This document shows positions 1 through 1,614 of a stretch of 5,432 nucleotides of DNA, one piece after another. Both the position numbers and the translations under genes were made by a program. Numbering within the stretch: position 1 is the first letter of the stretch; the number at the start of each line of letters is the position of its first letter. The notes beneath the pieces are model-generated. The model was not told the DNA's origin and did not search any database. It worked only from the letters and a program-made list of their open reading frames with translations. Source of the DNA: a virus (lineage: Duplodnaviria > Heunggongvirae > Uroviricota > Caudoviricetes); IMG/VR virus record IMGVR_UViG_2698536392_000013. One strand, given 5' to 3'.

Positions 1-211
1 AATACACCGTAAGAGCTGGAAAAACCGTGCAGAAGTGGAACTGGCCACACTCACGTGGGTGGACTGGTATAACAATCGACGATTGCTGGAAAGGCTGGGC
101 CATACTCCTCCGGCAGAAGCAGAAAAAGCTTATTATGCTTCCATCGGAAACGATGATCTGGCAGCCTGAGTTTACAGATAAAACACGCTCCAGGAAACCC
201 GGGGCGGTTCA
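1..211 (+). mobile_element. Right end of an IS3-family insertion sequence (IS629/IS1203/IS3411-like terminus); the element continues left of the window
   Basis: Frame 2 is open from the window edge to TGA at 167-169 and encodes ...WVDWYNNRRLLERLGHTPPAEAEKAYYASIGNDDLAA, a typical C-terminus of an rve/DDE transposase. The reverse complement of 170-211 is TGAACCGCCCCGGGTTTCCTGGAGCGTGTTTTATCTGTAAAC, which starts with the TGAACCGCCCCGGG motif I recall for IS629-group terminal inverted repeats. The exact end at 211 is inferred, and the left end and target duplication are outside the window. Confidence 0.7.
2..169 (+). CDS. IS3-family transposase (OrfB-type, rve integrase core), C-terminal 55 codons only; 5' part is outside the window
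   Basis: Open frame entering from the window edge, stop TGA at 167-169; W-x-WYNN-RR-L-x-x-LG-x-TP-AE motif characteristic of IS3/IS481-type transposase C-termini. The ORF-track ORF 27-350 is a different frame and is not this gene. Confidence 0.7.
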   Translation: MHRKSWKNRAEVELATLTWVDWYNNRRLLERLGHTPPAEAEKAYYASIGNDDLAA

Positions 212-1614
212 GCCATTACTTTTGCAACGCGATCGGCCTCTCCCCTTGCCCCCTGCAATTCTCTGGTCAGTTTTTGCAGTTCTCCTGAACCAGCCGCCGC
301 AACAAGCGTCTGCAAACCAACGAACGCCTCTTCTCCGGCGATGTCCTTGAAGAAGGAGACCTGGTCCACCTGTCCGTATTTTTGTGTCGCCTTATAGAGA
401 TCAAGCAGCACATCCTCCATCGGGCGCATTTTGCCTCTGGCGTCAGCAACTGACACCCCCAGCTCTTTCAGTGCATCAGCCGCAGCTTTTGGCGGTGATG
501 CAAGGCGGGACAGACTTGCGCGCATGGCCGTACCAGCATCGCTTCCGCGAAGACCATTATTGGCAAGCATCCCGGCCATGGCCGCCGCTTCTTCAAGACT
601 GATACCAAGTTTTGCGGCAACCGGACAGGTATACTTCATGGTTTCGCCCAGCGCGCGTAAATCAGTATTGGTCCGGGTGAATGCTGCTGTCAGCGTATCG
701 CCAACCCGGTCCATTTGATCGGCTGTCAGGTTGAACTGTGTGAGGATATTGGAGCCTATATCAGCCGTCTCGCCGAGTTCGACGCCACCTGCCAGCGCCA
801 TATTAAGAACACCGGGCAATGCGGCCTGAATGGCCTGCGGAGTAAAACCAGCCATTGCCAGAAAGCTCTGCCCACTGGCGGCATCACTCGCAGTAAACTG
901 TGTTTCAGAACCAAGTTTTAACGCCTGCTCACGCAGCGCCTTAAACTGCGGGCTGTTTTTGTCGATTCGCGTCAGTGCCTGAACGCGGGACATCTCTTTG
1001 CCGAACCCGATCGCAGGCTGCAAAAAACGCCCGGCAGCATAGCCGCCAGCCGCTGCAGCACCAATTGCCAGCGCACCACCTGTTTTCAGTTTTCCCGCGG
1101 TTTCCTGCGCGCGCGAATACCGCTCACGCGCCCGCGTTACACGCGCAAGCGCCTGCCGTTCGCGTTCAAGCTGGTTGTTGTACTGTTCGGTGCGTCTGAT
1201 GGCCTGCTGGATGGTGTTATCGCTGCCTGTCAGGGAAATGCCGTGGCGTTTCAGCTCTCCGCCAAGTTCCCGCATTTTCTGAATTTCCCGTGTGCGCGAT
1301 TCATTCAGGCGTTCAAGCCGGGTGCTTAACTGCTGCATCAGCTTTTGTTGTTTTTCGCTGAGCACTGTACCCGTGCGTTGTAACTGATTAAGGGCGTTAA
1401 GCTGGCGTCGTGCTTTCACGATACCCGCATCCGCTTTACTGACAGCGTCGCGGGCGCGCTCAAATGAACGCGCCTGACGCTCGAGATTTTTGATCGCCCC
1501 CTGCGTTCGCTGGATGGAGTCACCAAACTGCCCCATCAGGCGGCGGGCGTTTTCGGCAGGCCGGGTCAGCCTGTCAACGGCGCTGAAAGCGACCCGGATA
1601 TCAAGAGTCTTCAT
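172..1614 (-). pseudogene. T: Phage tail tape-measure protein (P2 gpT-like), truncated and fused to IS sequence; native T-derived sequence is about 212-1614
   Basis: Translation has a coiled-coil-rich N-terminus (many R/E/Q/L heptads), a Gly/Ala-rich hydrophobic segment (GGALAIGAAAAGGYAAG), then a tape-measure core-like region (LPGVLNMALAGG...DRVGDTLTAAF...AKLGISLEEAAAMAGML...FFKDIAGEEAF). Start is probably ATG 1614-1612 (GGGAG 8 nt upstream, overlapping the E' stop) rather than the GTG at 1650 used by the ORF track. About 468 native codons against roughly 800 expected for a P2-type T; the last ~13 codons (EPPRVSWSVFYL) are read from inside the IS end. Confidence 0.75.

Follow-up and report, generated by a model that had tools for sequence, protein, structure and literature searches.

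The window analysed here, by which we mean the whole 5,432-nucleotide stretch of viral DNA (Caudoviricetes) in the IMG/VR virus record IMGVR_UViG_2698536392_000013, forms the right-hand end of a P88-like prophage (Xuanwuvirus, Peduoviridae, P2-type). It is bracketed by two different IS3-family insertion sequences (IS), an IS629-type element on the left and IS600 on the right. Our subject is the left-hand element and the tape-measure gene T, which it interrupts. Tape-measure proteins set tail length and are needed for tail assembly. Gene T is placed just downstream of the frameshifted chaperone pair E/E' (the minus-strand order is FI, FII, E, E', T), and its coding sequence is incomplete: only codons 1–468 are contiguous and the remainder lies past 1310 bp of IS. 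The whole window matches four complete Escherichia coli chromosomes (2013C-4830, 2012C-4227, 90-3040 and 2013C-3492) at 99.9–100%, and we infer the sequence to the left of the window from these near-identical relatives. On one side of the integrated prophage is yecA and on the other the leu-cys-gly tRNA cluster. Coordinates of all features are collected in Table 1.

Table 1. Features of the window, in order of position, with the evidence for each
Feature	Position	Strand	Evidence
Right-hand 211 bp of the 1310-bp IS629-type (IS3-family) insertion sequence	1..211	+	207/211 identity to VT1-Sakai IS629
IS629 transposase OrfB, last 55 codons and stop	2..169	+	Translation; weak Pfam rve_3/rve_2 matches of the fragment
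IS-encoded tail of the chimeric T reading frame, 12 codons (EPPRVSWSVFYL) and TAA at 174-172	172..211	-	Translation
25-bp right terminal inverted repeat (IRR), ending ...TCA	187..211	+	Annotated IS629 right repeat in AP000400
GCC, right copy of the 3-bp target-site duplication	212..214		Flanks the IS on both sides, single in Z1323HEC0010
T, 5' part, codons 1-468 of 935	212..1614	-	Identity to intact T; PF10145 and TIGR01760 matches
E' reading frame, -1 relative to E, overlapping the T start	1601..1837	-	PF06528 Phage_P2_GpE, E = 8e-13
E, tail assembly chaperone, 121 aa, intact	1765..2130	-	Open reading frame; position upstream of E' and T; PGAP 'tail protein'
FII, tail tube protein, intact	2185..2697	-	PF04985, full-length, E = 2e-46
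FI, tail sheath protein, intact	2697..3881	-	PF04984, PF22671, PF17482
D, baseplate hub, 369 aa, intact	4039..5148	+	PF05954; same start MTDTTMQLL as D of P88 and ML775
ogr, native codons 1-71, interrupted at codon 72	5191..5404	+	PF04606 at residues 3-49; junction compared with Z1323HEC0010
First 28 bp of the 1264-bp IS600 inserted in ogr	5405..5432		Interrupted genomes compared with Z1323HEC0010; PGAP 'IS3-like element IS600 family transposase'

Interruption of gene T by an IS629-type element

The window begins inside an insertion sequence and contains its right end. In a megablast search of the window against phage records, bases 1–217 match the IS629 of phage VT1-Sakai with E = 3e-100, so the match is not due to chance; against the IS629 annotated in that phage (AP000400), 207 of the 211 positions 1–211 are identical. 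The same record gives IS629 a length of 1310 bp with 25-bp terminal repeats and labels the last 25 bp 'inverted repeat from right end of IS629'. The OrfB fragment in the window ends ...WVDWYNNRRLLERLGHTPPAEAEKAYYASIGNDDLAA*, and 42 further bases then reach the end of the element, ...GGGGCGGTTCA, at base 211, which coincides with this annotated right repeat. The fragment lies downstream of the catalytic E, and the DDE residues are all outside the window. In the interrupted genomes the full copy between two GCC repeats is 1310 bp long, and only its last 211 bp are in the window. The copy of NZ_CP013029 is identical to the VT1-Sakai IS629 at 1258 of 1310 positions (96.0%). Its terminal inverted repeats are imperfect, with TG...CA ends (TGAACCGCCCCGGG...CCCGGGGCGGTTCA); left and right repeats pair at 23 of 25 positions in NZ_CP013029 and at 22 of 25 for the copy in the window, where an extra mismatch occurs at 187. 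The full element has an orfA of 108 aa and, in the −1 frame, an orfB of 296 aa. An A6 run (IS nucleotides 373–378) immediately precedes the orfA stop, and PGAP, the RefSeq annotation, predicts a 'programmed frameshift' in the transposase. OrfB of NZ_CP013029 contains WVADFTY...HHSDKGSQY...AESINGLYK, in which 35 residues separate the second D from the E (DD35E), and it matches NF033516 transpos_IS3 ('IS3 family transposase') with 313.8 bits at a cut-off of 160. PGAP labels the element 'IS3 family transposase' only. Terminus and transposase both match IS629 of the IS3 family, and we class the element, by its identity to IS629, as an IS629-type isoform.

On the minus strand the T open reading frame starts with an ATG at 1614 and stays open down to the TAA at 174–172 (by translation). 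It consists of 468 native codons followed by 12 IS-encoded codons and a stop; the original prediction, made from the letters of the window, had given the same start at 1614 and stop at 172 with about 468 native and about 13 IS codons. The predicted chimeric product is 480 aa long and the C-terminal 467 residues are missing. Residues 1–469 are 99.4% identical to the intact T of strain Z1323HEC0010, and with T of phage P88 (AIZ95153.1) the first 468 residues share 92.1% identity. The fragment matches PF10145 at residues 228–427 (192 bits). Its TIGR01760 score is 231.7 bits as compared to 289.3 bits for full-length intact T, where this match covers residues 190–537 and is cut at residue 469 by the insertion. 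The match of the window fragment ends at profile position 281 of 349, i.e. mid-profile, which means that the insertion splits the conserved tape-measure core and not a dispensable end. PGAP flags the 5' T fragment as 'frameshifted'. We considered a second lesion as the cause and rejected it: the fragment is one open frame that aligns without gaps to residues 1–469 of intact T, and the flag arises because the annotated pseudogene reaches into the IS end (8143–8211 of the interrupted locus).

The insertion point was defined by comparing interrupted and uninterrupted prophages. The interrupted locus aligns as ...ATTATCG-GCC-(IS, 1310 bp)-GCC-ATTAC..., and the uninterrupted locus of Z1323HEC0010 reads ...ATTATCG-GCC-ATTAC.... 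This alignment points to simple transposition with a 3-bp duplication and makes the boundary at base 211, where it had been predicted, exact. A duplication of 3–4 bp had been expected at 212–215, and the GCC that was found matches window positions 212–214. IS629 has been reported to duplicate 3–4 bp of its target (PMC3271280). To the left of the full IS, the four genomes have GCC, 467 more T codons, the T stop and, 12 bases downstream, gpU. This 3' fragment of T comprises 468 codons including the duplicated alanine; it contains no internal stop codon and shares 99.4% identity with residues 468–935 of intact T. Thus the claim that an IS3-family element interrupts T is borne out by a full IS629-type copy (1310 bp, where 1.2–1.4 kb had been anticipated), by the GCC duplication and by the second half of the gene beyond it. 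No in-frame start codon for the 3' half is present at the junction of the IS left end and T, and the first one, a GTG, follows only after about 40 codons. The IS, 1.3 kb long and read antisense, separates the 3' half of T and gpU from the upstream FI-FII-E-T genes. RefSeq (PGAP) marks both T pieces as pseudogenes adjoining the 'IS3 family transposase', and the split of T by the IS is an ordinary gene disruption already visible in this public annotation.

The native 3' end of T cannot be seen within the window, and one could suppose that T ends naturally near base 212 with the IS merely downstream of a complete short tape-measure gene. The probability of this is negligible. Intact T is 2808 nt long (935 aa) in every uninterrupted relative examined, namely Z1323HEC0010, phage P88, 2011C-4251 and the O103 strain ML775, and in uninterrupted sequence the native frame runs ...KVMADNLDGDL... 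through the insertion point, while the TIGR01760 match breaks off at the profile position given above. The length of roughly 800 aa that had been assumed for a P2-type tape measure suits P2 itself and is too short for the orthologues considered here.

The IS could also abut T through an IS-mediated deletion, an inversion or recombination between IS629 copies, with the 3' half of T lost or moved. The population paper on clonal complex 119 (CC119) of Shiga toxin-producing E. coli (STEC) gives 31–40 IS629 copies per genome and reports IS629-mediated inversions in this lineage (PMC10132054), and the window itself ends before the left side of the IS. However, in all four junction genomes the complete 1310-bp IS is flanked by the same GCC, codons 468–935 of T and gpU stand directly past the IS and are colinear with the uninterrupted prophages. 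Matching target-site duplications are the hallmark of simple transposition. We regard such a rearrangement as very unlikely. An assembly artefact has to be considered as well, as IS629 is highly repeated (about 30 places per genome) and repeats are the usual cause of misassembly. Yet the window and four independently sequenced closed genomes have this junction in common, together with its duplication and the IS600 that flanks it in ogr, and a clean 3-bp duplication is not expected when an assembler misplaces a repeat. The chance that the junction arose in this way is vanishingly small.

We noticed that the IS end in the window differs from that of the four genomes sharing the junction at positions 173 (T versus C) and 187 (G versus T). 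Both private substitutions fall in the last 40 bp of the IS, and position 187 is the innermost base of the IRR. Through them one residue of the fusion tail is altered and its TGA stop becomes TAA; the conclusion is unaffected. They may have come from another IS629 copy by gene conversion, or the window may belong to a different CC119 sublineage. A scan of one-genome-per-species contigs for exact matches to the junction with both substitutions gave no hit, and the window probably stems from another CC119 genome that is not in the RefSeq set.

Expected consequence for the tail

Our results indicate that almost certainly an IS629-type element has transposed into T at codon 468/469 of a P88-like P2-type prophage in CC119 STEC, and that this is one of several inactivating lesions. 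We found nothing that contradicts the insertion itself. The 1310-bp element has inserted between T codons 468 and 469 and duplicated GCC, and the T frame now runs 12 codons into the right end of the IS and terminates, giving the predicted 480-aa chimera. From the general roles of tape-measure proteins, a product without its C-terminal half would not be able to template a tail, so that no functional tape measure would be made. Expression of gpU would probably be lowered by polarity. The prophage should then be unable to build a tail, and the insertion in T would take its place among several inactivating lesions of a prophage decaying in place.

Some points weigh against this reading. The loss of the tail is a prediction from the known function of tape-measure proteins. 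Neither fragment of T has gained stops or frameshifts, and sequence alone therefore leaves room for residual use of a fragment. In addition, the window differs from all four junction genomes at 173 and 187, and its left flank is taken from near-identical relatives. The second point is the basis for a reading in which the disruption is real and does not inactivate: the 480-aa product would serve as a shorter tape measure (for a short tail or a tailocin-like particle), or the two halves would complement each other. The reading frames of both halves remain open, with 99.4% identity to intact T, and in phage lambda in-frame deletions in the tape measure gpH give shorter tails, which counts for residual function. 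Here, however, T is changed by truncation and not by in-frame deletion: the product is without the C-terminal 467 residues and its core domain is split. The 3' half also has no in-frame start at the IS/T junction. Moreover, in the same prophage J and the capsid gene are frameshifted and IS600 splits the terminase gene. We give this reading very little credence. Because of the lesions in J, capsid and terminase, particle production would fail on other grounds too. Residual function of the T fragments is unlikely, and in this respect moot.

Distribution of the junction and other lesions of the prophage

A 200-base probe across the T::IS629 junction found it in only 4 of 5,426 complete E. coli genomes; strain 88-3510 (CP027675) is not one of them. 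Strain 2012C-4227 is O165:H25 (PMC4683243), and 90-3040 and 2013C-3492 are O172:H25, ST660, of clade H of CC119 (PMC10132054). At least three of the four carriers thus belong to STEC CC119 and span O165:H25 and O172:H25. Since the same junction is found in both serotypes, the insertion by parsimony predates their split. Strain names suggest isolation dates between about 1990 and 2013 for the carriers. Independent IS629 insertions in T in other lineages, which would mark a hotspot, were considered and rejected: T is intact there, and the IS copy is found elsewhere, either close to the tRNA cluster or past gpU.

With the one in T, this prophage has at least six lesions. These lesions are common to 2012C-4227 and 2013C-4830, two independent assemblies that agree at 99.985% over 20 kb. 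IS600 splits the large-terminase gene, the major capsid gene and a DUF6645 gene carry frameshifts, the baseplate gene J is frameshifted by a one-base deletion (CCC to CC), and a 1264-bp IS600 stands at codon 72 of ogr. The hedged suggestion in the original prediction that the insertion is recent and the element otherwise intact does not hold, as the junction is common to O165:H25 and O172:H25 and is accompanied by at least five other lesions. The IS600 in the terminase gene is 100% identical to the one in ogr, and the two lie about 23 kb apart in opposite orientation (NZ_CP013029, NZ_CP027325). Such paired copies could mediate an inversion within the prophage.

It has been reported that 62% of the IS629 copies in O157:H7 sit in prophages (PMC3271280). 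For CC119 the population paper gives 23–33 IS600 copies per genome beside the 31–40 IS629 copies mentioned above (PMC10132054). With this IS629/IS600 load of CC119 and the prophage bias of IS629, such insertions are the expected background process. The searched main text of the same paper makes no mention of this prophage or of the T::IS629 allele (PMC10132054), and a literature search pairing O165:H25 with IS629 returned no paper containing both terms.

The prophage has further genes of note. A serine acetyltransferase gene lies between the tail-fibre assembly gene and gpU (16264–16836 of the NZ_CP013029 locus, outside the window), ParM-type plasmid partition genes adjoin the replication endonuclease of the prophage (outside the window as well), and hok/gef is found just beyond ogr. 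Cargo or maintenance functions are possible for the serine acetyltransferase, ParM-type and hok/gef genes.

With regard to the fate of the T::IS629 allele, one could propose that it has been kept by selection and not by passive decay. For example, the 480-aa product or the immobilised tail module could be of use to the host, either as a short tailocin or by supplying tail parts to another P2-type or satellite element. If this were true, the prophage would be fixed in place by the insertion together with its remaining lesions, and CC119 would benefit from its serine acetyltransferase, hok/gef and ParM-type genes. We consider selection highly improbable here. On the preferred reading, that of an IS629-type insertion in a decaying prophage, the element should be marked as defective in CC119 STEC, which is useful for counting inducible prophages or for judging the availability of P2-type helpers. 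The T::IS629 junction could serve as a lineage-specific marker of O165:H25 and O172:H25 strains for polymerase chain reaction or read mapping. Otherwise this is one more case of IS629 and IS600 eroding STEC prophages, a pattern already well documented, and its significance beyond bookkeeping is small.

Other genes of the window and comparison with known systems

The remaining genes of the window largely agree with the original prediction: FI, FII, E/E' and D are intact as it had stated, and the exception is ogr, whose codon 72, close to the right-hand end of the window, is the site of an IS600 insertion. The 121-aa product of gene E has no Pfam match. We noticed a slippery heptamer T TTT TTG at 1819–1813 on the minus strand, near the end of gene E (direct reading of the sequence). 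Together with an E' in the −1 frame that matches Phage_P2_GpE, it fits the conserved frameshift of P2-type tail chaperones. In the PGAP annotation E' is present only as a 51-aa 'GpE family' ORF (open reading frame) of its own, at 1601–1756.

Gene D is transcribed divergently from FI, as in phage P88, and its full 369-aa ORF is open in the window. In the CC119 genomes PGAP starts D only from window position 4348 (266 aa, 'VgrG/Pvc8 family') and adds a spurious overlapping pseudogene. This difference probably reflects inconsistent annotation rather than a lesion. The orientation of D and ogr, away from FI, at first suggested an inversion, which we rejected, as the same arrangement is found in P88 and in all uninterrupted prophages. 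The divergent intergenic region between FI and D (window 3882–4038, 157 bp) should hold two Ogr-dependent late promoters. The exact P2-type late-promoter dyad TGT-N12-ACA has no match anywhere in the window.

At the right edge, CTT at 5402–5404 is the 3-bp target duplication of the IS600 in ogr. The interrupted Ogr retains 71 native residues, including the whole zinc-finger domain (3–49), and continues with 15 IS-encoded residues. PGAP calls ogr intact because the chimeric Ogr, at 86 aa, by coincidence has the same length as the native protein.

Among known phages, the prophage resembles those of the P88 type. Window positions 322–5404 align in one piece to P88 (95.2%), PhiR44_2 (95.5%) and Xuanwuvirus P884B11 (93.4%). 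In gene order the prophage agrees with P88 (Xuanwuvirus P88): U-T-E'-E-FII-FI share a strand, and D and ogr are divergent from FI. The difference is in T: the 935-aa T of P88 is uninterrupted, whereas T of the window is cut at codon 468/469 by IS629. Compared with the tail cluster FI-FII-E-E'-T-U-D-ogr of phage P2, the same Pfam families are present (sheath, FII tube, GpE, PhageMin_Tail, GpU, GPD and Ogr_Delta), and P2 uses the same T TTT TTG heptamer for the passage from E to E'. T of P2 is about 815 aa long as compared to 935 aa here. In P2, D and ogr are on the same strand, downstream of U; P88-type phages, in contrast, have them on the other side of FI and on the opposite strand.

The insertion sequence itself resembles the IS629 (isoforms IS1203 and IS3411) of VT1-Sakai in its length of 1310 bp, its 25-bp repeats, the TG...CA ends, the −1 frameshift between orfA and orfB, the DD(35)E motif, the 3-bp duplication and the location in a prophage, and it differs from it in that the nucleotide identity is 96.0% and not 100%. 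As a whole, the prophage is like the defective, IS-riddled prophages of other STEC (O157:H7 Sakai; O165:H25 and O172:H25 of CC119): it is stable in its lineage and has been inactivated piecemeal by IS629, IS600 and frameshifts.

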